Assembly (NCBI GenBank): GCA_000091205.1
Contig: AP006495.2
Direction: 5' to 3' (one strand)
Length of the DNA: 64,000 nucleotides
Source: Cyanidioschyzon merolae
Taxonomy: Eukaryota
Made by a program: the position numbers and the translations under genes. Below are positions 1 to 62,159 of the stretch, one piece after another. Within the stretch, counting starts at the first letter, position 1; every line of letters starts with the position of its first letter. Below the pieces are notes generated by a model, which ran no database searches, was not told where the DNA came from, and saw only the letters and a program-made list of their open reading frames with translations.

Positions 1-1494
1 CCCCCCATTCCCCCCTCATTTCCCTCCTTTTTTCTCTCCGGTGGTATGATCTCTGCGCAAAGCATGTATCATTTCGATTTTTTTATTTCGGAGCCTTTAG
101 TGTATTCCATTCAGTCCCACGTTCGCTGCGCATACGAATCTCCATTTTGTGACGCCTAGAGCAGCATGCGCTTTATGGTATTCTCTCCGATGTTATGCTT
201 ATTTTGTTTGACAGGACGTTTCCACTCTCCATATTTTCCGTGTTTTCGGAATGATATTCGCTTTTTGGGAATGTGTCCGTCATGATTATCCTTTTTTTGT
301 ACTTTCTATCGCCAATACTTTCCCTCGGCTGTGCTGGTTGGTTCATAATTTCTGTTTTCCGGGGGTGCCTGCCGTGAGTCGTCTCTGTTGCGCCACTTTA
401 CCTGGTGTGGGTGCTGTTGGAGAAGAGAACAGCTTTTGCTTACCACTGAGCTCTTTGGGACAGGCTTGGTTTGTTTGACACCCAATCTGTGCTCTTTATA
501 TTTTGCGAGCCGCCAAGCTGTGCATGCACACCTTTAGCTCGCAATAGTGCGGAGCTGTATAATGGGTGTCCCCCGCGACCTAGTTGTCGCCCAGACGCTG
601 CAGGCTTGGTCCTAGTCCTAAAATCAAATGCGTTGCGACGATATGCTGAGGTTCGACCCATCACTCGCCACTGGAATGTCACACGTAAGACACGCCGGTG
701 GTTTTTCGCGGCCCGCGGACCTTCCGCCTAAACGGTATCTGTTTGACAATACGCAAAATCTTCCTGCTCTTATTGTCTACCGTAGTTGGGGATAGTATTT
801 TTTATCACGTTGTTAGAGATTGTTCTTTTTTTCGATATCGTTCGTCGCGGTTACGCACCACGAAATCTGGCCGTCCCTTCAAACGACGTGTGTTTTGTCG
901 AAGGAAAGAACCGCGATAATGACGTCTTCTGGAGCTACTGCTCTATTGGGGCAAGTTGTACTTCCGATCAAATCGGGGAATAATAAATTTTTGGCTTCAA
1001 TCGAGTCTCAGTCCTCATGTAGGATTATTTATGTTACTTTCGCCTCTGAAAGTAGAAGCGTCGAAAGTGTTATCGCCCAAAAAACTAGATTATTGTAATT
1101 GGAAGTGGAGAGTTTTAGATTGCCGATGTTGCCGTGTGTTTGAAGCAAACGAGAAAGAATGCCTTGTAATGGGTAAAAGGTAAAGAGGAAGATGCAATAC
1201 ATGGAAGCCTTTTCGAAGGCTGCCATATTGATATCTGTACGACAAGATTGTGGTAGCGTACTATCTTCTCCAACATATCGGTGGTTTGTACGACTGAATG
1301 TGGCCAGACGCTATCAGAAACATTGTCGATTCGTACACCAGGTATGTTTGGAACCTTTCTTGGGGACTGAAGCACTTGGAGTGTGAGCTGCATCGCGACG
1401 TATCGCGCATCGCAAAAGTTTTGTTTCTGGAAAATTTTTAAAAGTATTTTCATCAACCACCTGATTCTTTGCTATGCGGAACCATCGATGAGAA

Positions 1495-40933: not shown

Positions 40934-42064
40934 ATGTCCTCGCAGAGCACGGCGCTTTCGAACGGTGCCAAGTCGGTAACCAGTGGGCAGCCCGACGGGA
41001 ACTCGGACGCGCGGGTCGTCTACGGCGACCGTCTGCGCTTCGTGCCGCGGAATATCCTTGTGACTGGCGGTGCCGGCTTTATTGCCTCGCACGTAGTCGA
41101 ACGGCTCGTGAGTCGATATCCCCACTACCGCGTGACGGTACTGGACAAGCTCGACTACTGCTCGTCGCTGAGCAACCTCGCGCAGGTGGCAAACCGACCA
41201 AACTTCAAGTTTATTCGCGGCGATATCCGCTCGCATGACCTGGTGCTTTACGTGCTCCAGGAGGAGTGCATCGATACAGTGCTCCACTTTGCGGCGTGCA
41301 CGCATGTCGACAACTCGTTCACGTCCTCGATCCTGTTTACGGAGAACAACGTGCTGGGAACGCACGTCCTCCTGGAGTGCGCACGCCAGTACGGCAAAGT
41401 GCGGCGCTTCATTCACGTCAGCACCGATGAAGTGTACGGCGGCGAGAGCAACATGGAGACAGAGTCATCGATCCTGGCACCCACGAACCCGTACGCATGT
41501 AGCAAGGCCGCCGCCGAATTCATTTGCCGCGGCTACGTCAAGTCGTTCGGATTGCCGGTGATCATCACACGCGGCAACAACGTGTACGGGCCGCACCAGT
41601 TCCCCGACAAGCTCATTCCCAAGAGTATCTGTCTGCTGGCGCAACGCCGGCCCTGCTTTGTACACGGCTCTGGTGAGCATGCACGCAACTTTTTGTACGT
41701 CGAGGACGCTGCGAGCGCCTTTGACACCATCCTGCATTGTGGCGAGACCGATGAGGTCTACAACGTAGGCTCTGAGATCGAGAAACGCAACATTGACGTT
41801 GTGCACGACATTATCGATCTCTTCGGCCTGTCTGCCGAGGCGAACCGCCACATCGAGTTTGTCAAAGATCGCACCCTCAACGATATGCGCTACAGGATCG
41901 ACTCGTCGAAGCTGCATGCGCTGGGCTGGAGGCCGCAGGTGTCCTGGGAAGAGGGCCTGCGCCGAACCAAGACCTGGTACTGTGATCCGAATAACCTGAA
42001 GCGCTGGCCGAATTATCTCAGTGGCCTCGTACCGCATCCGAGTCTCACCGAGGAGAAGCACTAG
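40934..42064 (+). CDS. UGD: UDP-glucose 4,6-dehydratase (RHM/UGD-type NDP-sugar dehydratase of the UDP-rhamnose pathway)
   Basis: Near-collinear with the plant RHM N-domain: 'NILVTGGAGFIASHVVERLVSRYPHYRVTVLDKLDYCSSLSNL', 'NFKFIRGDI', 'IDTVLHFAACTHVDNSF', 'RRFIHVSTDEVYG' and 'YACSKAAAE' (the YxxxK). Confidence 0.85.
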   Translation: MSSQSTALSNGAKSVTSGQPDGNSDARVVYGDRLRFVPRNILVTGGAGFIASHVVERLVSRYPHYRVTVLDKLDYCSSLSNLAQVANRPNFKFIRGDIRSHDLVLYVLQEECIDTVLHFAACTHVDNSFTSSILFTENNVLGTHVLLECARQYGKVRRFIHVSTDEVYGGESNMETESSILAPTNPYACSKAAAEFICRGYVKSFGLPVIITRGNNVYGPHQFPDKLIPKSICLLAQRRPCFVHGSGEHARNFLYVEDAASAFDTILHCGETDEVYNVGSEIEKRNIDVVHDIIDLFGLSAEANRHIEFVKDRTLNDMRYRIDSSKLHALGWRPQVSWEEGLRRTKTWYCDPNNLKRWPNYLSGLVPHPSLTEEKH

Positions 42065-51908: not shown

Positions 51909-54586
51909 AATACAAACGAAAACTTAGCCGTGAGGTCTGAAACCCCGCCAAAGCGTGTCTCGAGAAGCCTTGTGGATAAAAACGCACGTGGCAGAGTCGG
52001 CTTCGACGCACACCGTTATGCTCATTTGTATAGACTTGTACAGTTCTCGGTTTGAGCGCTGTGTGGCGTACGCGTTTCAACTCCTGCCTCAGCAACCTGA
52101 AAATCGTTCGTCTTTTTGGCACGACTCGCGAGTCAAAGGTCTCTATCGCAGACGCTGCGGTGCCTGGGAAGCGTCAAGATATAGAGGCGCCTTTGCGGCA
52201 CGGTTGGGTTCAGCTCCAGGGTTCAGGGACGTGTACGGTATGCGAGTCCGCTGGCGCTCGTCGAAGAGTGCCGCTGCTGTGCGTGTCTGGTAAGGGCGCC
52301 GTCGACGTTTGGCACCAGCGTTGGGAGTGCAGCCAGCCCTTGTGGACTCGAAGAGCTATTCACAAACATCAAACGGTCTTTCAGTGAAGGTGGCAAGCTG
52401 CGAACTAAAATCGAGCAAGCTATGCTTGACACTAGGACGTGGAGGGCGCTATCCTGGTTTAGAGGCCGCTGCGATGCGCGCCTCGTTCTCGAGTTTCACG
52501 TGGTTGCTGCCGGGCCAGCTTGGGGAGAGCAAATACATTGGGAGCGCATTGGCATAGCGACGGCTTCGGGATAGGGATCAGGCAGGAGCAGACGAATACG
52601 CCCGTGTGGAACGTCGGACAGGTGTCGGCAAACGCATCGTGTCGCCCAAAACGCTCAGCAAGTCACCAATATTCTGTGTATTTGCATCGGTTGCTGGAAG
52701 ACGGCTCATATGTTGTGAAATGCTATATATCGTTCATGAGCATATACAGCGCGTAATGTGTGCTGACGAACGTCTAGAGATCAGTGGGCAACATCCTTGC
52801 AGGTCTGCCGGCCTGATATGGTTAACGTCATTCATTGACGAGAGCGCGCTTTCCTTGAGGGTACCAGGGTGCTTATTGAACGCAGTATGGTGCAAGCTGG
52901 CCAGGGAAATGGAGAATTTTCGCATGTGCCCCGCATTCCCCGCGTCGCCTTTTAGGAGCTCTGTGGATAATCAGCATGGCACGCAGCTGATGAGGTGCTC
53001 CTGCTGCCCTAGTCTCCGTTTATGCCTGAAACAGATGATTGCCATTCAAGTGAATGCAGGATGTGCCAGTAACTCGCATGGAGACGGTTTCGTGCCGTAA
53101 CGCACAGTGGCCCACTGACCACATGCGCGATGAGACTTCTACGCACTCGCACAGTTCGGTAATAGACGCCTGCTGATAAAGGTATCCGCACGCACCTGAT
53201 ATGCTTTGAGAGAGTCCACTGCACAACCAAGTTGTAGCAGAGTAGCACGACCGCTTTGCTCGTTGCTTGGCAACCAGCGGGGTGACAGCCGTGCACGCGC
53301 CACGGCATCCGGCGCGGCTCGTTCCCAAGTGGACGGCATTAGAAGAAGAAGCTCTCCGTTGCTGCATGTAGAGAGTGCCCAATGCATCGAGGCGCTTGAT
53401 CCGACGTGAATTAGAGACGCTTTCGGAGTCAGAGATCGTCCGCAAGACGCCGTGTCCAAGGTCTGCGTAGGAGCTGGCGCACTTGCTGATGGCCGTCTTG
53501 CACCATTCGAGGATACACGAGCGCACTACGGGATATCGTTGCGCAGCGTCTGAAACTCCCTTGTCGTAAACGTTGTCCAAGAGGTCGATCATAATGTCTG
53601 ACGATGTTGGCACCGACAACGAGTCGCAGGATCTAGTGTACGCACGGAACAAGGTGCGCAGCGCCCACACTGCTCATTCAGGACGCTTCGAACGGACTTG
53701 CGCAAGAAAGTCGCTACCGAGGCATCGTTCTGACCCAAATGCGCCTGCTTCGCCGTTTCTGGTCCGCGCTGCTGTGTGCACAATGAGGCAAACGGGCAGG
53801 ATACGGAAGAGCCTTTCATCGTCATGTAGGACATCATGGCGCTGGCCTTGTGGGATCCTCGACACGGACTTGAGGCCGTCCGAGCATGTGCTGGGGCAGT
53901 CCTTCAGCCAACACGTATGTCCGCAGGCGCATGCTCCCCTGCAAGGCATCCTTTAGGGTTTTTGTAAAGGTCTAGGATGTCGCTGGGCCGTCGCTCGCCC
54001 CCGCACCGCTTTGGACGAAGACTCACCAGACCAGACCCGCCTCATTCAGTCACCACCACCAGTACATGGACCGACAGCATTCGTGGCAGAAGGCGCTGGA
54101 ATTCCGTAGCTGCTCGAAAACCGGGGAAGCGTACAAGCATCGCACGCTACGCAAACGTTCGTCTGTGCTGTACGTTGCACCTGGATGCAACTAGAGCAAG
54201 TTACACCACAGAGCACACTGTGCAATGCCCCGGATTCGACTCGAGCCGCAACCGGCAGGCTCAAATTGACAAACCGCCTCTATGCATCAACTGGAGCGTC
54301 CGGAAAAGAGCTGCCTGCTTTTCGCCGGTAATCGACTGTGTCCGTTCATCAAGCGCATGTAGATCAACATGTCATCGATCGCACATGATCTGCGGGCGCG
54401 CGCGCCCGTGCTGACGCATCGCCTGATGAACTACAGGATGGCACTTTTGGGGAATTCCCTGATTTCACGGAGGGAATTCCCTAATCGTAGCGGCATCATC
54501 GGAGCCACTCGATCCCGGCCTGTCGTCATGTGCACGAATCGTTCAACTGAATCTTTGCTTGAAGCGATACGATGGAAGCATCGTAG

Positions 54587-54676
54587 ATGCGGTGTTGTGA
54601 GCTGGGACCGAATACCGGGGCTGATCAACCAGAGCGCACCGAGCCTCCGTCCGAGACCAGCGAAAGTGATGAGGTC

Positions 54677-54708
<32 letters not shown>

Positions 54709-57700
54709 TGGGGATCTCGCCGACCGTCTAACGCGCAGCGTAGACGAACAGAGTCGATCCGCCGGGTGCGCGGCTAGCGGCGCCCAGGACAAGCCGCAGA
54801 CATTGTGCTCGGTGCAAGACGTCACCGCGTCCACTGCACAACGTTTTGACGTGCGCCAAAGCAAGGAGTGCGGCGAAGCTGTCCAGAACTTCAGCGAGCT
54901 TGGCGTGGGGAAGCAGCAAGAGCACGCTGATCCACGAACGGTCTGGCTTCCAGGGTCACCTGAGCCGACCGCGTTTCCCCAAGTCCGACTGGTTGGCAAC
55001 TGGGACCTACCGATGGTGCCCATGAACGAAGAACCCAGCGAATACACATCCTCTGTCAGGGAAGGCGCTGTGCCTGACCTGTGTGAAGAGGGTTCGGTTA
55101 CACGTGCGTCCAGAATAGGAGCTTGCGTGGTGCAAGCCGCGAGCCATTCCCGAGAAGCAGTCGCAGGCGACGCGCAGTCTACCGATGACCAGGAGAGCGA
55201 GATGCACACCGCAAGCGCGTCGACGACGACTGCTAGCTCGTTGAAGCAGTGCACAGCAGACGGGAAAAGCGGCGAATCCACCCAGAGGCTGCATACAGAC
55301 TCGAGAGCGTCCTCTGGCATCGCGTTTGTGCCCTACAAAAGTGAAGAAGAGGTACTGGCGGATTTAGAACTCGAGGATTCGATGGACGATCATACCTACA
55401 CACTGCTTGATCTTAGAAAATCCTTGCCAGAGCAGATGCAGCGCCGGTCCTACGCTTGCCCAACGGTGCGAGACGGCAGCAGGTCAGATCGTCACCTGGA
55501 TAGGCGGGCATTCCGTGGCGAAAACGAAGAAGAACACGACGACGATAGCTCCAGCGGACCAGATCGGGATGTCTGGACGCCACCGGCTACGCCTTTGGAT
55601 AGCGAGATGCCGCTCATCGTGTGTCCACCGGAGCCCGTCTGGCCATGCGAGGAAGATCTGCGGGATCTCACACCCGCTGAACTTGCACGCTCTACGGATG
55701 TATTCATGCAGGTTGCGGAGGAGCTGCATTTCCACTGGCGTGTGCTCAAGCTCGGTACCGATCCGGTAACGCCAACCCCTCTGCTTGAGCGTCTTAAGTT
55801 TCTCTGTATCGTATCGAGCAACCTCGATGAGTACTTTTCCAAAAACATGTACGATGTGTCAAAAACAATGCGCCCACTCTACGAACGGATTTCAGCTGCG
55901 ATACGCGACATCACTGCTCAGCAGGAGTCCTGTTTCACGGACGTTATTCTACCAGCGCTCGCTCGATATGATATGCGCATTCTACGTTACGCAGATCTCA
56001 GTATGACGCAGCGAGCGCAGATGAACGCGTTCTTCCATGCTCGTCTGTTTCCACTGCTTACCCCGCTGACCCTGGATCCGACGCATCCGTTTCCGCTTCT
56101 GCGCAGTCACTCGCTGTACCTGGCGGTGCTGCTGAAAGGCGCTCAGCTGATGCCGCCTTCGGAACACGACGCCCACGACGGCGACGAAAGTCCGATTCCG
56201 GCGCTGAGTCCACCGAACGCCTCCCTGGACCGCTCGATAGCCACTGCGCTGCCCTCTGATACCCACGTCGCCTGGGTCCGAGTCCCGTCGTCGTGTAGTC
56301 GCTTCATTACCGTGGACAATGAGAAGCGTTTTTTGCCGGTCGAGGAGATTATCATCCAGAACTTGGATGCGCTTTTCGAAAACGTGCGCGTCATTGCAGC
56401 GTACCCGTTCCGCGTGACCCGTAATACCAAACTTGAACTGGACAAGATCGAACTCAACGAAAGTGAGGATTTTTTGAAAATTGTCGAAGAGAACCTATAT
56501 AGTCGACAGCGACGAGCCGCAGTGCGGCTGGAGGTTTCGCGCGATATGCCCGACGTGCTGACAACGCTGTTGCGCGAGCAACTGAACCTGGAACCCTTGG
56601 CTATGTATCGCTCAAGGGCTCCGATTATTGGCCTCAACGACTGTTTCATGCTGACGAACGTCAACATCCCTGCTTTGCGATACCCCCCGTGGCGTTTCAA
56701 GACGCACTCTATTCTGGCCGGCTACAAATACGGCGTCCAGAGCGGGCACACGGCCCATATGTTTGAGCTCATTCGACACAACGACGTGCTGTTCTCGTTT
56801 CCGATTCATTCTTTTGATGAGACCACTCTGCGTTTCCTCGAAAGCGCAGTTCGGGACCCCGCAGTGCGCCTGATGAAAATGGTGCTGTATCGATGTGGGA
56901 ACAATTCACCTGTCGTGAAGCTGCTCATGGAGGCGGCTCGGCGTGGCATTGATGTCAATGTGCTGGTTGAACTCAAAGCTTCCTTTGATGAGGATCAGAA
57001 TGTCCTCTACGCTCGCATGCTCCAAGAGGCGGGCTGTAACGTCGCGTACGGGGTCAAGGGCTACAAGACCCACGCGAAACTTATTCTCGTGGTTCGCGAG
57101 GAGAATCATGCCCTGGTCTCGTATTGTAACGTCGCCACTGGCAACTACAATGCAACGACGGCGAAAATCTATACGGATTTTTCGCTGTTCACCAGTCGGG
57201 AGGATATCTGCGCCGATGTCACCGATTTGTTCAATGTGTTTACGGGGTATAGTGCGAAGCGATCGTTTCGCAAACTCCTCGTTTCACCGGTGAACATGCG
57301 CGATCGTTTCCTCGAACTCATTCAGCGCGAGATAGATAACGCTCGTGCGGGCTACCCGGCGAGAATCATCTGCCAGTGCAACGGTATCACTGAGGTGCTT
57401 ATCACCCAGCGACTCTACGAGGCGAGCATGGCCGGCGTTCGTGTCGACCTCATCGTACGCGGTATCTGCCGTGTTCGACCCGGCATCACCGGCATCAGCG
57501 AGAATATTCGCGTGGTGAGCATCCTCGGGCGTTTTTTGCTTCACGCTCGAGTGTTTTATTTTGCGAACGCCCGTGAGGCTAAACCCGAGTACTATATCGG
57601 GTCTGCGGACTGGCGTACACGAAATTTGCTCGCTCGTCTGGAGGCTGTCGCCCCGGTTGAAGACAAGTACCTGCAGCAGACACTCTGGCGACACCTGAAT

Positions 57701-58495
57701 CGGCTGTTGAGTGATTCTGTGAACGGTTGGGAGATGCTCCCCGACGGTCGCTACGTGAAAGGCGAAAGCGAAGCGCTCGGGCATCTCCGAGATGCGATCA
57801 TGGCTGCGCGTCGGGAGGCCGAAGCCGAGGCCCTCAAACCGCCAGCACAAGCACCGGTGTCGGCGGACGAGGTGACACCGGGCTCGTCGGAGGCCGAACA
57901 CTTGCCCGTCGTGCGTAAAGCTGGTTGTGTTCCGGTTCGGTTGAACCGGCGACACAACACGCGTCGAGACGATATTGGCACGCGGTACGAGGTGCTTCTG
58001 ATCACCTCTACCTCGTCGTCGTTTATTGCGCGGCATCCGAATGATTCGCGCGTCTCGGAAATACCGGACGGTGGCATCACGTGGGTCTTCCCCAAAGGCA
58101 GCATGGCGTACGGTGAAGATGGCCGCAGTGCTGCGCTGCGCGAGGCCCTCGAGGAGGCCGGAGTCAGCGGCGAACTCGGGCCGCTCCTCAGTGTCAGCAC
58201 GAAACGCAAACGGAGAACGGTGGTCATGACCGAGTTTTATTTGCTGCATGTGAAACAGCAGCTGTCCCAATGGGGCGAAAGCAGCCAGCGACACCGGCGC
58301 TGGTTTACACTAGACGAGGCAGCGAATGTGATCACCAAAGAGTATCTCTTGGAAGCGCTGATGAAGGCTCGTCAAGCGCTCGGCGAAACGCCTACCAGCC
58401 AACCGACATCGCCACCAGCACCACCAGCACCACCACCAGCAGCAGCAGCAGCAGCAGCATTCGAATCGACTACCAATGGCGGAAAAAAGCACTGA
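54587..58495 (+). CDS. PPK1: Polyphosphate kinase 1 (PPK1, full N/H/C1/C2 architecture) fused to a C-terminal DIPP-type Nudix hydrolase domain, preceded by a ~360-aa low-complexity N-terminal extension
   Basis: PPK1 blocks: 'LLERLKFLCIVSSNLDEYF', 'FRVTRNTKLELDKIELNESEDFLKIVEENLYSRQRRAAVRLEV', HKD-1 'YKTHAKLILVVREENHALVSYCNVATGNYN' and HKD-2 'RFLLHARVFYFANAREAKPEYYIGSADWRTRNL'. The Nudix region 'RHPNDSRVSEIPDGGITWVFPKGSMAYGEDGRSAALREALEEAGVSGELGPL...RHRRWFTLDEAANVI' parallels human DIPP 'RHPDRWIVPGGG...REVCEEAGVKGTLGRL...RKREWFKIEDAIKVL'. It is one continuous ORF of 1302 aa. Confidence 0.9.
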
Positions 58496-58987
58496 GACGC
58501 ATCACCGCAACGTTTACGCGCTTACGCGACGCGCAGTGCGGGGTGCACTCGACAGCACCTCCGAGACTTGCCCCAGAGGCGACATGCGCGGTCTCTGCGT
58601 GCGAGGTGCAGACGAGTGAGCAGCGGGTATGGAGATCCTGTTTAGGTCGCGCTACCGATATTCGGGAATCGTTGTTCTAAAGCAGTGGTTGTGCGCGTAA
58701 CACCAAAGGAGACTATCGCGAGATGCGGATGGTATGTTCGTGATCGCAAGAGGCATCCTCTTCGCCAAACCGCAAACGCTGCGCGCTTGAATCATGCGCA
58801 TAGAAGCGCGTGCTCCATGCTGAATCCCCAGCAAAGCAGCACTTGGAAGCTGATGGAGCCTTCGCTGCGGCTCTTGTAGCAGCCTCGCAGCAGAGGCTCG
58901 AGGTCAAAAGTTGTTAGCACGGATAGATGGATATGTATGTTACTCGACATATAGAAAATGCACCAAGATCCGTGCTTGCCGCGCAGG

Positions 58988-59215
58988 TGTGCGCACGATC
59001 AGCACTCCGTGATCCATAGGTACATATTCATACATCTTTGGCACTGTTCACCTGGTATCGCTATCAGCGCGCACGATCAGCACTCCGTGATCCATAGGTA
59101 CATATTCATACATCTTTGGCACTGTTCACCTGGTATTCCTATCAGCGCGCACGATCAGCACTCCTTGATCCATAGGTACATATTCATACATCTTTGGCAC
59201 TGTTCATCCATCTCG
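58988..59215. repeat. Minisatellite, three copies of a 78-79-bp unit, between the convergent PPK1 and OSCA genes
   Basis: The unit 'cgcacgatcagcactccgtgatccataggtacatattcatacatctttggcactgttcacctggtatcgctatcagcg' recurs starting at 58991, 59070 and 59148. The listed ORF 58958..59332 is its translation artefact. Confidence 0.85.
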
Positions 59216-59255
59216 CTGTGCGCGCTGCGCGCATGTTCTTCGATGTACGCGGCGT

Positions 59256-62159
59256 TCAGGGCGGCGCTGCACGTACCAGCTGCAGTGCGTAGGTTCCGAA
59301 CAGCACGAAACGCTGCCGTATCCGATGCGTAAAACCTACAAGACGATCAGGATGCCACCGCAGCTCAAGCAAAAGTCCCCATAAGTACGCCACGCTCAAG
59401 AGAAGCACCAACAGGAGCCCGGTATTCCCGTATATCCATGACAAGAGCACCAGAAGAACGATCGCAGTGGTCAGCACCACAGCGCCGGCGTTGGTCGCGG
59501 TCCGCGCCATTCGCGTATCCGTTGGATGCGGTGGATGCACTTTGCTCAAATTGTACCGATCTGTAAAATACTTGGTGACAAGATACAGTCCAATAAAAAG
59601 CCACAAAAACGGTACGAATGGACCGAGGAAGAACCCAATCGCGAGCACTTTGATGACCTGGGCGTAGGCGTACGGGTAGTCAAACGGTGCAGCCTGGCCG
59701 GCTTGGGCGAGCACCAGTGGCGTGTAAGCGTGCTGGCGACGCCAAAGAAAGCGTAGCCAGTGCATAGGGTGTAAAAGCGCCAAGCTATTCCCCGTAAGCG
59801 CCAGCTGGATGAGAAAGTTCGTGTAGAAAAAGGCATTATCGCCACGGAAGATCCGCTCGACCACTTGAAGCACTCGTTGGGGTGTCTTTCCGCTCGCCGC
59901 CCGGCGATAAGCCAATAATACAACCTCAGCGGCAGTGTTGATAGCGAGCGACGGTAGAACCAGCGTGTTCAGCAGATAATATGCGATGCTCTTTCGCAGA
60001 ATCGATGCCTCTTCTGCAGAGCGCGTCATATGACTCTCGTGCTTCGCCAATTGTCGCAGCATCCACGGGACGGCACTGTTGATCAACATCAGCAGACCAA
60101 CGGGTAAGTACGAGAATACAAAGGCCGTTGGCCAGGAGCTTCGTCCCGTTCGCATGCCAGTCGCCTCGTCGATCCGGATCAGCGTTCGACGAATCTGCTT
60201 GGACCATGGACTCGAAGCGCGCAGGACATGTTGTATGGCACCATGCATCTCAAAGCGCCTGGAAAGTGTCTTGAAACAGCTCAACATATCGATTCCTCTG
60301 ATGTGAGGATTCCCTACAACACTACCAACTGGACCGTGTTGATGATCGCTGGACTGCCTCCAAAACAGACACCAACGGCTTGCGTTGGGCGCTGTAAACG
60401 CTTGCAGCGAGCTGAGCGGCGCATTCGTCGTTGCGCTCGCCAGCACCTGAAGAACAGACAGAATCGCTACGGGCGAGCTCAGAAACAAGAGACCAAGTGC
60501 GAAGAGCACATTCAATACGACTTCACGTAGCCATCGCTCCCAAGCCGGTATGCCCAGATGGGACCACTGCACGTCCGATAAAGATTCAACAGCCTCGGCG
60601 TGCAGTGGGCGAAAAAACGCCTCGTTCACGTTCTCGTTAGAGGAGGCATCTCGCGTGGGAATCGCCTCCCTTAATTGCAGGCCAGAAGTCGCACTGTCCG
60701 CTACCAGAGGCTGTTGGAATGCATCGTCTACGGAAGCGCACAAGCGACGGCACGCGCTCATGAGCCGTGGCAGCAACCGCCGCTGACGACGATGCCGTTC
60801 GCAATCGACAAGACACTGGTGGAACCACCAAGGCTCCCGGAAAGCGACCAGAATCCAGCCAGTAAAGCGCTCGGCATGCTCGCTGCCCGCAGTCCGTCCA
60901 TCATCATCATCATCATGCTGGTCAAGTTGGGCGAGCTGCTGTGCTAGCCGCGCGAGCTCAGCTTGTCGCCAGAGCTCGCGCTGTTCCAGTTGTGCCGACG
61001 GTGATGTGGTCCACAACCGCAACCCCAGAGGTATGTGGATTTCTTCACTAGGCAGCGAGGCCAAGTACTCGTAGAAGGCTTGCAGGTAGCGACGCCGGCG
61101 CTGGCGCTCTGCAGCTACCAGTTGTCCACGGTAGATGAGCTCTACTTTCTGAATCGATAACTGCGGGTACCTTCTGTAGAGCGCTGCTTCAATACGAGCT
61201 GCATCCCAGCCTTGACGAGGCCAGCCGCCGAGCAACAAATACAGCGGCCTCTGCTTTCGCCTCGAGGCCTGCCCTGCTTCCATCGAGCTCGTTCGTGCAA
61301 GGCTATCGTAGCGGGCCGGTAGATGACTCGCTGCATCCGGTGGCGTCGAACGTTCGTCGGCTGGAGACTCGACAGCACCCACGGAATCGTGCCGCATCGT
61401 TGGACTCAGCGCGAGTCGCCACAGGACAATGGTGGTTACACACGCCATCCAGACTGGAAGCTGCATGAGTACAGCGGCTCGGGCACCAGACTCGAAGCCG
61501 GCAGACAATGTGTAGGCGGTGTGCATTCTTTCCCACCAGGTGCGCCAACCAGAAGCACTTGACGTACTCCTGGTGAACCATAGCATCAATGGCAGTTGGA
61601 CAACAAGCCCATACAGACTAAGCACGCCCGCCAACAAGAGCGCAATCCAGACAAAACTCATGTACAGGTTGCGCTCTAGCGAGATATCCGCCGCAGGGCT
61701 TCTCGATGAGACTGTTGGAGTAGCAGCAGCAGCAGCAGCAGTGATAATCGTAGATGGAACATCTTTCTTGAGCTGCTCGACCGGCACACCTGTTAGCGTT
61801 TGCTGAACCCGTGCCGGTGCTCCCGCAAGCGCATCATCAATGGTATCATCCGCATCTTCCGCTACGATGCGCTGGAAATTGATCAGAATGCGCCGTTGCT
61901 CCGGTGTTAGGTGCGATGCGGGATTACCAACTGCTGCAAATAGCAACAGATTCAGCCCCGCGGTGATTAGGTTGATGCGAATGATCCATCCGACATTGCC
62001 GGTGATCACGAGACCTTCCACGATTTTTGGATCCTCCATGGGTGTTCTCCTAGGCGCGAAGCAGGACAAATCGTATGACTGGTGTTGCGCGGGTTTTGTA
62101 CGGCGATCCAGGCGTTTCGGAAATGCGGCGGACTGCCCCAAGCGCCTCGGCAAGAGCAA
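59256..62159 (-). CDS. OSCA/CSC1/TMEM63-family (DUF221) calcium-permeable stress-gated cation channel
   Basis: 967-aa polytopic ORF. The C-terminal 'PFDYPYAYAQVIKVLAIGFFLGPFVPFLWLFIGLYLVTKYFTDRYNLSKVHPP' matches the DUF221 signature (PL.LPF....YF..KY..DKYNL..VY). It also has a cytosolic linker domain and eleven hydrophobic segments. Confidence 0.7.
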   Translation of the reverse strand: MLLPRRLGQSAAFPKRLDRRTKPAQHQSYDLSCFAPRRTPMEDPKIVEGLVITGNVGWIIRINLITAGLNLLLFAAVGNPASHLTPEQRRILINFQRIVAEDADDTIDDALAGAPARVQQTLTGVPVEQLKKDVPSTIITAAAAAATPTVSSRSPAADISLERNLYMSFVWIALLLAGVLSLYGLVVQLPLMLWFTRSTSSASGWRTWWERMHTAYTLSAGFESGARAAVLMQLPVWMACVTTIVLWRLALSPTMRHDSVGAVESPADERSTPPDAASHLPARYDSLARTSSMEAGQASRRKQRPLYLLLGGWPRQGWDAARIEAALYRRYPQLSIQKVELIYRGQLVAAERQRRRRYLQAFYEYLASLPSEEIHIPLGLRLWTTSPSAQLEQRELWRQAELARLAQQLAQLDQHDDDDDGRTAGSEHAERFTGWILVAFREPWWFHQCLVDCERHRRQRRLLPRLMSACRRLCASVDDAFQQPLVADSATSGLQLREAIPTRDASSNENVNEAFFRPLHAEAVESLSDVQWSHLGIPAWERWLREVVLNVLFALGLLFLSSPVAILSVLQVLASATTNAPLSSLQAFTAPNASRWCLFWRQSSDHQHGPVGSVVGNPHIRGIDMLSCFKTLSRRFEMHGAIQHVLRASSPWSKQIRRTLIRIDEATGMRTGRSSWPTAFVFSYLPVGLLMLINSAVPWMLRQLAKHESHMTRSAEEASILRKSIAYYLLNTLVLPSLAINTAAEVVLLAYRRAASGKTPQRVLQVVERIFRGDNAFFYTNFLIQLALTGNSLALLHPMHWLRFLWRRQHAYTPLVLAQAGQAAPFDYPYAYAQVIKVLAIGFFLGPFVPFLWLFIGLYLVTKYFTDRYNLSKVHPPHPTDTRMARTATNAGAVVLTTAIVLLVLLSWIYGNTGLLLVLLLSVAYLWGLLLELRWHPDRLVGFTHRIRQRFVLFGTYALQLVRAAPP

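Follow-up and report, generated by a model that had tools for sequence, protein, structure and literature searches.

The open reading frame (ORF) at 54587-58495 on the + strand of the window, the 64,000-nucleotide stretch of Cyanidioschyzon merolae DNA analysed here, is very probably the C. merolae PPK1 gene (CMM026C), joining a polyphosphate (polyP)-making PPK1 and a tethered, putatively hydrolytic Nudix domain in one polypeptide. The PPK1-Nudix fusion of C. merolae is already known. A sequence-only reading of this stretch had taken the architecture to be uncharacterised; it is contradicted by Yagisawa et al. 2024 (doi 10.1007/s11103-024-01539-5), whose title describes a PPK1-Nudix fusion involved in C. 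merolae polyP accumulation, by a 2025 review, according to which the majority of eukaryotic PPK homologues carry a fused Nudix hydrolase of the DIPP family, and by a 2013 survey that lists CMM026C as the C. merolae PPK1. The architecture is also already common in databases, with the fusion present in every cyanidiophycean genome matched in the protein database. The gene keeps some interest: red algae reportedly lack VTC and rely on a bacterial PPK1 gained by horizontal transfer, which is joined here to a Nudix domain of eukaryotic type, from a hydrolase family that in yeast counteracts toxic polyP outside the vacuole.

54587..58495, + strand: whole PPK1-Nudix ORF, 1302 aa plus stop, with domains from Pfam and NCBIfam

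The ORF contains no internal stop and no change of frame, in line with the earlier claim that nothing interrupts the sequence between PPK1 and Nudix, and an in-frame TAG lies immediately 5' of its ATG. Five other ORFs in the window showed residue-for-residue identity to C. merolae 10D proteins (BAM80904.1, BAM80910.1, BAM80914.1, BAM80916.1 and BAM80917.1), all of them encoded on one contig of 866,983 bp. From these neighbours and from the survey's listing of CMM026C, we infer that the ORF is the nuclear, single-exon PPK1 gene of C. merolae 10D, CMM026C, called CmPPK1 here. Because the NCBI protein record for CMM026C was absent among the database matches to the ORF, this equation is an indirect one and the annotated start may differ. 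In protein database searches, the only match to the exact 1302-aa sequence came from a JGI metagenome.

The gene lies close to the left end of the chromosome (866,983 bp), and a telomere-like repeat is present at the start of the window. The flanking genes are eukaryotic and encode a Nab2-type CCCH zinc finger protein, eIF2B-gamma, EF1-gamma and an RSN1_7TM channel. A prokaryotic origin or bacterial contamination of the window was ruled out by the identity of the neighbouring ORFs to C. merolae 10D nuclear proteins. Two minus-strand ORFs within the gene (57284-58294 and 54625-55320) were treated as chance ORFs, since both lie across a conserved coding frame and the DNA is GC-rich, and Rfam and tRNA scans of the entire window returned no matches.

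The PPK1 module and its flanking segments

The following features were assigned to the PPK1 module:

55724..55981, + strand: PP_kinase_N, residues 380-465 (Pfam E 7e-14)
56009..56647, + strand: PP_kinase middle (head) domain, residues 475-687 (Pfam E 9e-46)
56147-56236, + strand: lineage-specific, low-confidence insertion in the head domain, residues 521-550
56759..57256, + strand: PP_kinase_C_1 (PLD-like), residues 725-890 (Pfam E 1e-61)
57071-57073, + strand: His829 codon, aligned with the E. coli phospho-histidine His435
57128-57130, + strand: Asn848 codon, aligned with E. coli His454
57275..57769, + strand: PP_kinase_C (second PLD-like), residues 897-1061 (Pfam E 3e-56)
57542-57544, + strand: His986 codon, aligned with E. 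coli His592

All four PPK1 Pfam domains scored above their cut-offs and together spanned residues 380-1061. The NCBIfam model TIGR03705 (polyphosphate kinase 1, equivalog) scored 629.8 bits against a cut-off of 465.85, and the ORF product matched E. coli PPK1 (1xdo) with an E-value of 4.6e-84. The Pfam E-values for the PPK1 and NUDIX domains are far beyond chance. The sequence-only reading had claimed a complete PPK1 with both catalytic boxes and the N-domain motif LERLKFL..SSNLDE. Both claims held, the boxes being located as KTHAKL (residues 827-832) and FLLHARV (residues 983-989) and the motif being found as quoted (LERLKFL, residues 400-406; SSNLDE, residues 410-415). The second box carries HxR rather than the classic HxK, as do the prokaryotic PPK1s aligned with it.

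At the position of E. coli His454, a residue reportedly important for the E. coli enzyme, His was present in 7/7 aligned prokaryotic PPK1s and the algal protein has Asn848. Its PP_kinase_N domain is also without a 14-residue loop found in all aligned prokaryotic PPK1s. His829 and His986 were invariant across the 14 aligned sequences, and H435A/H592A have been used elsewhere as catalytic-dead mutations of E. coli PPK1. The predicted PPK1 module is complete and bacterial-type, with its catalytic residues intact.

Outside the catalytic domains, the protein carries an N-terminal extension, a linker and a tail:

54587..55606, + strand: N-terminal extension, residues 1-340, acidic and Ala/Ser-rich, no Pfam match
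54677-54708, + strand: GCA (poly-Ala) tract in the N-terminal extension, a tandem repeat
55325..55369, + strand: short conserved acidic motif FVPYKSEEEVLADLE, residues 247-261, within the N-terminal extension
55610..55723, + strand: pre-domain segment PLIVCPPEPVWPCEEDLRDLTPAELARSTDVFMQ..., residues 342-379, directly N-terminal to the PPK N domain
57848..57916, + strand: flexible linker from the last PPK1 helix to Nudix, residues 1088-1110 (~23 aa)
58388..58492, + strand: low-complexity Pro/Ala-rich C-terminal tail, residues 1268-1302, pLDDT <50

The N-terminal extension (~340 aa) is probably disordered, with a predicted pLDDT below 50 over residues 103-334 except for residues 259-261 in a short helix. 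Its first 255 residues are acidic (net charge -20), share only 12-27% identity with orthologues and suggest no N-terminal targeting signal. The motif FVPYKSEEEVLADLE is common to both Cyanidiococcus-type sequences and overlaps the sole predicted helix of the extension (model residues 151-160, corresponding to residues 253-262 of the protein). In the full-length model, confidence climbed from about residue 342, and the pre-domain segment PLIVCPPEPVWPCEEDLRDLTPAELARSTDVFMQ... is kept from Cyanidioschyzon to Galdieria (PPEPVWQCPYD...). On the other side of PPK1, the linker had a pLDDT below 50 (model residues 986-1008). The segment covering residues 1063-1110 was 85-88% identical to Cyanidiococcus compared with only 12-19% to Galdieria, and its length differs between genera. 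The DNA coding for the C-terminal tail consists partly of CAG and CACCAGCAG repeats, and the Pro/Ala tail is missing from Galdieria.

The Nudix module and its possible substrates

The C-terminal part of the protein contains two features:

57908..58387, + strand: predicted DIPP-type Nudix hydrolase domain, residues ~1108-1267
58097-58165, + strand: Nudix box GSMAYGEDGRSAALREALEEAGV, residues 1171-1193

Pfam NUDIX matched residues 1159-1245 with an E-value of 1e-10 and a score of 42.1 bits (cut-off 21.1), so that the PPK1 domains and NUDIX were all recovered by the Pfam search. Against the consensus GX5EX7REUXEEXGU, the box reads G1171-SMAYG-E1177-DGRSAAL-R1185-E1186-A-L-E1189-E1190-A-G-V1193, with Ala instead of Ile/Leu/Val at the first 'U' position; the catalytic Glu residues are Glu1186, Glu1189 and Glu1190. 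The AlphaFold2 model of the domain reached a pLDDT of 86.8 and a pTM of 0.80. A Foldseek search of the PDB with this model gave 487 matches at E<=0.001, which were Nudix enzymes throughout among the matches listed; the top 17 were all DIPP1/2/3 or Ddp1, and the target-normalised TM-scores against human DIPPs were 0.73-0.80. Among solved relatives found by sequence, DIPP1/2/3 scored 42-49 bits, Ddp1 28 bits and Ap4A hydrolases at most 27 bits. For P0207, the nearest of the free-standing eukaryotic relatives tested, DIPPs were likewise the first matches. As judged from the sequence scores and the predicted structure, the domain resembles DIPPs more than any other characterised Nudix subfamily and its fold is DIPP-like, which bears out the resemblance to DIPP/Ddp1 noticed in the sequence-only reading. 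The function suggested there, with a polyP synthase linked to a candidate polyP/PP-InsP/ApnA hydrolase, is a reasonable one.

The substrate pocket was compared with DIPP and Ddp1 comparator sequences, with a numbering consistent with the solved-structure matches and the literature. In this alignment, Arg1207 corresponds to DIPP1 Arg89 and Arg1235, invariant in 47 sequences, to DIPP1 Arg115; DIPP Arg89 has been described as critical. The domain also retains the Ser-rich strand and the RHP motif, and a residue other than His aligns with DIPP1 His91.

These assignments lead to a proposed mechanism in which the PPK1 module would convert ATP to polyP through a phospho-His829 intermediate, probably outside the vacuole, in a lineage reportedly without the VTC polymerase. 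The tethered Nudix would cleave the phosphoanhydride bonds of polyP (as an endopolyphosphatase), of inositol pyrophosphates or of Ap5A/Ap6A. With synthesis by PPK1 and hydrolysis by Nudix in one chain, polyP would therefore be both made and restrained, or tuned, by a single polypeptide. Such restraint could limit the toxicity or the chain length of non-vacuolar polyP; alternatively, polyP synthesis could be coupled to PP-InsP phosphate signalling. Ddp1 and DIPPs cleave PP-InsPs, ApnA and polyP, and yeast cells in which an ectopic bacterial PPK makes polyP outside the vacuole are protected from its toxicity by Ddp1 and Ppx1 acting together. Asn848 at the His454 position of PPK1 and the departures of the Nudix domain from human DIPPs weigh against the proposed mechanism. 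We tentatively propose, as an idea that is rather doubtful in this specific form, that the Nudix domain is a built-in governor, trimming or ending the polyP chain on its way out of the PPK1 tunnel, or a local destroyer of PP-InsP. If true, this would let a VTC-less eukaryote make cytosolic polyP without toxicity. The red-alga-specific changes of PPK1 (Asn at the His454 position, the lost 14-aa loop and the 340-aa disordered extension) might adapt the enzyme to the governor role.

Possible, although on balance unlikely, is that inositol pyrophosphates, rather than polyP, are the main substrate of the Nudix domain. In that case the fusion would work in signalling, tying the synthesis of polyP to the phosphate status signalled by PP-InsP in a lineage that has no SPX-regulated VTC; this is compatible with the main explanation of a PPK1 with a tethered hydrolase. 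The nearest characterised relatives of the domain are PP-InsP phosphohydrolases, it retains the Ser-rich strand as well as the arginines that align with DIPP Arg89 and Arg115, and the reported absence of VTC from red algae fits as well. Ddp1, however, has a higher affinity for polyP than for PP-InsPs and, when offered both, degrades polyP first, which argues against a preference for PP-InsPs.

We regard it as improbable that the domain clears nucleotide side products of PPK1 (Ap5A/Ap6A and nucleoside tetra-/pentaphosphates) without controlling polyP. DIPP/Ddp1 enzymes do hydrolyse Ap5A and Ap6A, Ap4A hydrolases are the next-best solved relatives, and PPK1 also forms nucleoside tetraphosphate, according to a review. 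However, the Ap4A hydrolases score about 20 bits below the DIPPs, and the basic pocket residues suit polyanionic ligands generally, not nucleotides particularly.

It is very improbable that the Nudix domain is catalytically inactive and has no role beyond binding polyP or PP-InsP or mediating regulation by them. Three departures from the DIPPs speak for inactivity: KGS before the Nudix box, compared with GGG in human DIPPs; an 18-residue insertion N-terminal to Trp1166; and Val1109, by simple register, at the Ddp1 Arg32 / DIPP1 Lys18 position. Yet the box Arg and its three Glu residues are kept in all red-algal orthologues across the Cyanidioschyzon-Galdieria split (REx2EE intact in 7/7), and Lys1170, within the WxxPKG motif, is the equivalent of Ddp1 Lys63 and nearly invariant among homologues, so that the Lys of PKG represents the Ddp1 state.

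Distribution of the fusion

The same collinear PPK1-Nudix architecture was found in Cyanidiococcus, Cyanidium and Galdieria partita, phlegrea, sulphuraria and yellowstonensis. Proteins that combine PF13089, PF02503, PF17941, PF13090 and PF00293 made up seven database clusters, which come from four genera of Cyanidiophyceae. Metagenomes contributed at least 8 full-length variants (1300-1304 aa), and many hot-spring contigs carry the fusion. No other eukaryotic PPK1 appeared within the best 120 matches of the full-length search. With the Nudix domain as query, an exhaustive search of representatives placed 2 long fusions in the best 150 matches (one from the Cyanidioschyzon group and one from Galdieria); a word-indexed search for homologues of the isolated Nudix domain yielded nothing but distant free-standing Nudix proteins and missed even the query. 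Identity to Galdieria was 59% in PPK1 and 39-40% in Nudix, higher than in the linker (12-19%), which argues that both modules are under constraint.

An artefactual fusion, through an assembly or sequencing error or read-through of two adjacent genes, is extremely improbable and was rejected: prokaryotic gene callers do split some metagenome copies into 'PPK' and 'NUDIX' proteins, but the continuous architecture recurs in independent genomes from four genera as well as in numerous metagenome copies of 1300-1304 aa, no stop or frame change separates the domains, members of the Cyanidioschyzon/Cyanidiococcus group have a conserved linker, and the fusion protein has been studied experimentally, to judge by the title of the 2024 paper.

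Comparison with known systems

The PPK1-Nudix protein of the 2024 paper is presumably the product of the same gene, as its title describes the same fusion in the same organism. The cyanidiophycean orthologues, including Cyanidiococcus yangmingshanensis KAK4531663.1 and Cyanidium caldarium, share the domain order, the catalytic residues and the PPEPxW pre-domain motif, and all have Asn at the E. coli His454 position. Their overall identity is 47-75%, and the extension, linker and tail vary in length and sequence. The Galdieria orthologues have RGT before the Nudix box, in contrast to KGS in C. merolae, and are without the Pro/Ala tail.

Bacterial PPK1 (E. coli, 1xdo/1xdp) has the four-domain layout and the His435/His592-aligned residues in common with the algal protein. 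The algal enzyme differs from it by an added N-terminal extension of 375 aa, the C-terminal Nudix and the 30-aa head-domain insertion, as well as by Asn at the His454 position and the lack of the 14-aa N-domain loop.

The DIPP family (human DIPP1/2/3 = NUDT3/4/10/11, yeast Ddp1 and S. pombe Aps1) shares the Nudix box and the predicted fold with the algal domain, which keeps the Arg89/Arg115-aligned residues, the Ser-rich strand, RHP and the PKG Lys, the last as in Ddp1. DIPP1 His91 and the DIPP1 Lys18 / Ddp1 Arg32 position are not conserved, and the algal domain has no equivalent of the Ddp1 'nose'. The DIPP enzymes are free-standing, whereas the algal Nudix is fused to PPK1 and its hydrolase activity is putative.

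The VTC complex (Vtc4), the polyP polymerase found in most eukaryotes, has the same cellular role as the algal PPK1, the making of the cell's polyP store, but an unrelated fold (TTM tunnel); it is membrane-embedded, couples synthesis to vacuolar import, and is activated by PP-InsPs via its SPX domains. VTC is reported to be absent from red algae, which reportedly use a horizontally acquired bacterial PPK1 instead.

Domain content and PPK1 module

The PPK1-Nudix gene is preceded immediately 5' of its ATG by an in-frame TAG. The Pfam search of the 1302-aa translation suggested by the sequence-only reading recovered four PPK1 domains and NUDIX. The translation also scored 629.8 bits against TIGR03705, the NCBIfam PPK1 equivalog (cut-off 465.85), and matched E. 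coli PPK1 (1xdo) with an E value of 4.6e-84. These results bore out one ORF with a complete PPK1 and a C-terminal Nudix fold, and the motifs quoted in that reading were all in place: LERLKFL/SSNLDE (residues 400-415), KTHAKL (827-832), FLLHARV (983-989) and the Nudix box GSMAYGEDGRSAALREALEEAGV (1171-1193).

Features of the PPK1-Nudix gene and protein (AlphaFold2 model, residues 103-1302)
54587..58495, plus strand: PPK1-Nudix ORF, single frame, 1302 codons
Residues 103-334: N-terminal extension, pLDDT < 50 save 3 residues in one short helix (AlphaFold2)
Residues ~342 to ~1087: PPK1 core, confident (AlphaFold2)
Residues 380-465: PP_kinase_N (Pfam)
Residues 475-687: PP_kinase (Pfam)
Residues 521-550 (56147-56236): head-domain insertion of ~30 residues, low confidence (AlphaFold2)
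Residues 725-890: PP_kinase_C_1 (Pfam)
Residues 897-1061: PP_kinase_C (Pfam)
Residues 1088-1110: linker, low confidence (AlphaFold2)
Residues 1159-1245: NUDIX (Pfam, E 1e-10, 42.1 bits, cut-off 21.1)
From ~residue 1270, after the Nudix domain: Pro/Ala tail, disordered (AlphaFold2)

The N-terminal extension is acidic and Ala- and Ser-rich, and its short helix overlaps a conserved acidic motif, FVPYKSEEEVLADLE (247-261). The PPK1 core opens with a conserved PPEPVWPC segment common to Galdieria, and the head-domain insertion is present in the window protein and close relatives. Trinucleotide repeats (10.7 copies of GCA at 54677-54708; CAG and CACCAGCAG at 58413-58459) encode poly-Ala and Pro/Ala tracts at both disordered protein ends, and the metagenome variants of this protein, at 1300-1304 aa, suggest small length differences.

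We aligned 7 cyanidiophycean and 7 prokaryotic PPK1s. His829 and His986 (E. coli His435 and His592) were invariant in 14/14 sequences; catalytic-dead E. coli PPK1 is made with H435A/H592A. The position of E. coli His454 was His in all 7 prokaryotic sequences, whereas all 7 cyanidiophycean sequences carried Asn (Asn848 in the window, 57128-57130). A 14-residue N-domain loop of the prokaryotic PPK1s (near 55880) was likewise absent from 7/7 cyanidiophycean sequences.

Conservation of the fusion and genomic setting

The full-length search yielded, among the matches listed, 7 clusters with all PPK1 domains plus PF00293: the query's own cluster (37 members, including 8 listed full-length metagenome variants), a Cyanidiococcus-type cluster (76% identical), and clusters of Cyanidiococcus yangmingshanensis, Cyanidium caldarium, Galdieria partita, G. 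phlegrea and G. sulphuraria. A G. yellowstonensis protein (1073 aa) fell in a separate further cluster. Against Galdieria, the PPK1 core was 59% identical and the Nudix domain 39-40%, but the linker and residues 1-255 just 12-19%. Both enzymatic modules are thus constrained, with drift in the connecting and terminal segments. A genuine protein of two domains would be expected to show this pattern. The cross-species conservation of the architecture and the segment-wise identity exclude a sequencing error, named in the sequence-only reading as a possible source of the fusion, and likewise an annotation artefact.

Five other window ORFs were residue-for-residue identical to C. merolae 10D NCBI proteins, all on an 866,983-bp contig: EF1-gamma (BAM80904.1), BAM80910.1, eIF2B-gamma (BAM80914.1), BAM80916.1 and dTDP-glucose 4,6-dehydratase (BAM80917.1). 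Further eukaryotic neighbours encode a Nab2-type CCCH zinc finger protein, an S1-domain protein and an RSN1_7TM channel. According to a 2013 survey, the C. merolae PPK1 is CMM026C, and we infer that the PPK1-Nudix ORF is this gene. The NCBI protein for CMM026C was absent among the database matches of the full-length search, and the sole match to the exact 1302-aa translation was in a JGI metagenome; the start codon annotated for CMM026C may therefore differ.

Other features of the window
40934-42064: dTDP-glucose 4,6-dehydratase ORF
51909-54586: 2.7 kb upstream of the PPK1 gene, largest ORF at most 216 aa
58991-59224: tandem repeat, 3 copies of a 78-nt unit (100%, 97% and 78% identity to the reference copy)
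58958-59332: ORF across the 78-nt repeat, encoding a repeated peptide
59256-62159, minus strand: RSN1_7TM/CSC1-like channel gene, 3' end convergent with the PPK1-Nudix gene

Window positions 1-20 open with CCCCCCATT, and a degenerate copy comes next. CCCCCCATT is taken to be the C. merolae telomere repeat AATGGGGGG in reverse complement. Given this match and the lower GC (0.455) over the first 2 kb, the window appears to begin at a chromosome end. The dehydratase ORF clusters with sequence under three more C. merolae accessions (BAM80401, BAM80649 and BAM81944), of which one is on a 1.23-Mb contig. This points to a gene family with several copies, possibly subtelomeric. The convergent 3' ends stand 760 bp apart with the tandem repeat between them, and the ORF across the repeat is unlikely to be a real gene. 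Of the ORFs upstream of the PPK1 gene, the one searched (53020-53670, minus strand) had zero Pfam matches; a metagenome contig of the same sequence has two called genes there, of 264 aa and 145 aa. This stretch may be a promoter region or the site of small lineage-specific genes.

Relatives of the Nudix domain

By sequence, the Nudix domain best matched DIPP2, DIPP1 and DIPP3 among solved structures (42-49 bits), against 28 bits for Ddp1 and at most 27 bits for Ap4A hydrolases. With a domain-only model (pLDDT 86.8, pTM 0.80), the top 17 Foldseek matches in the PDB were DIPP1/2/3 or yeast Ddp1 (17/17). BLASTP against human DIPP1, with a DIPP1 sequence consistent with the alignment to solved structures, gave 36% identity (E 9e-17). 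The proposed DIPP/Ddp1 likeness therefore held.

The REx2EE glutamates were kept in every red-algal orthologue of the 14-sequence alignment. The Nudix domain of the window protein shares a Ser-rich strand and an RHP motif with human DIPP1 and differs by an 18-residue insertion ahead of Trp1166. Arg1207 and Arg1235 sit at the positions of DIPP1 Arg89, termed critical in the literature, and Arg115; Arg1235 was invariant in a 47-sequence alignment. Ahead of the box, Lys1170 in WxxPKG matches the yeast state (Ddp1 Lys63, a phosphate-binding residue), whereas human DIPPs have GGG. The DIPP1 His91 position is unconserved, as is the Ddp1 Arg32/DIPP1 Lys18 position, which by simple register holds Val1109.

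The Nudix domain was searched exhaustively against 1.84 billion representatives. Near relatives among the matches listed were the two representatives of the red-algal fusion, small eukaryotic Nudix proteins that stand free (Physarum, Ceratiomyxa, Lapot), and bacterial proteins that pair a CAP12/Pycsar-type TIR domain with two stretches matching Nudix. The one free-standing protein tested (P0207) best matched DIPPs. Four apparently bacterial TIR-Nudix proteins (P0203, P0204, P0227 and P0260; 440-540 aa) were among the best-scoring relatives. This looks like a defence-system architecture unrelated to the PPK1-Nudix finding, and we know of no characterisation of it.

Proposed function and comparison with known systems

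The catalytic centres of both modules are intact and conserved, and a short flexible tether links the modules. The PPK1 module, presumably the alga's polyP synthase, would polymerise polyP from ATP via phospho-His829, and by analogy the Nudix module would cut phosphoanhydride bonds of polyP and/or inositol pyrophosphates. This proposal draws on the substrates cleaved by Ddp1 and DIPPs (PP-InsPs, Ap5A/Ap6A and polyP), on polyP being the tightest-bound of these for Ddp1, and on yeast, in which Ddp1 with Ppx1 counters the toxicity of non-vacuolar polyP from ectopically expressed bacterial PPK. A hydrolase on the same polypeptide could plausibly benefit a eukaryote adopting a soluble bacterial PPK1. 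The Nudix domain might instead serve PP-InsP-specific signalling or nucleotide polyphosphate clean-up; a binding-only role is unlikely because the catalytic glutamates are conserved. Sequence alone cannot tell these alternatives apart.

The domain interpretation of the sequence-only reading was right, but its view of the architecture as uncharacterised was not. The fusion is already known: it is annotated across cyanidiophycean genomes and, judging by the title and citations of a 2024 functional paper, which ties a PPK1-Nudix fusion protein to polyP accumulation in C. merolae, this ORF is probably the gene treated there. According to a 2025 review, red algae are without VTC genes, and PPK homologues in eukaryotic genomes are mostly fused to DIPP-family Nudix hydrolases.
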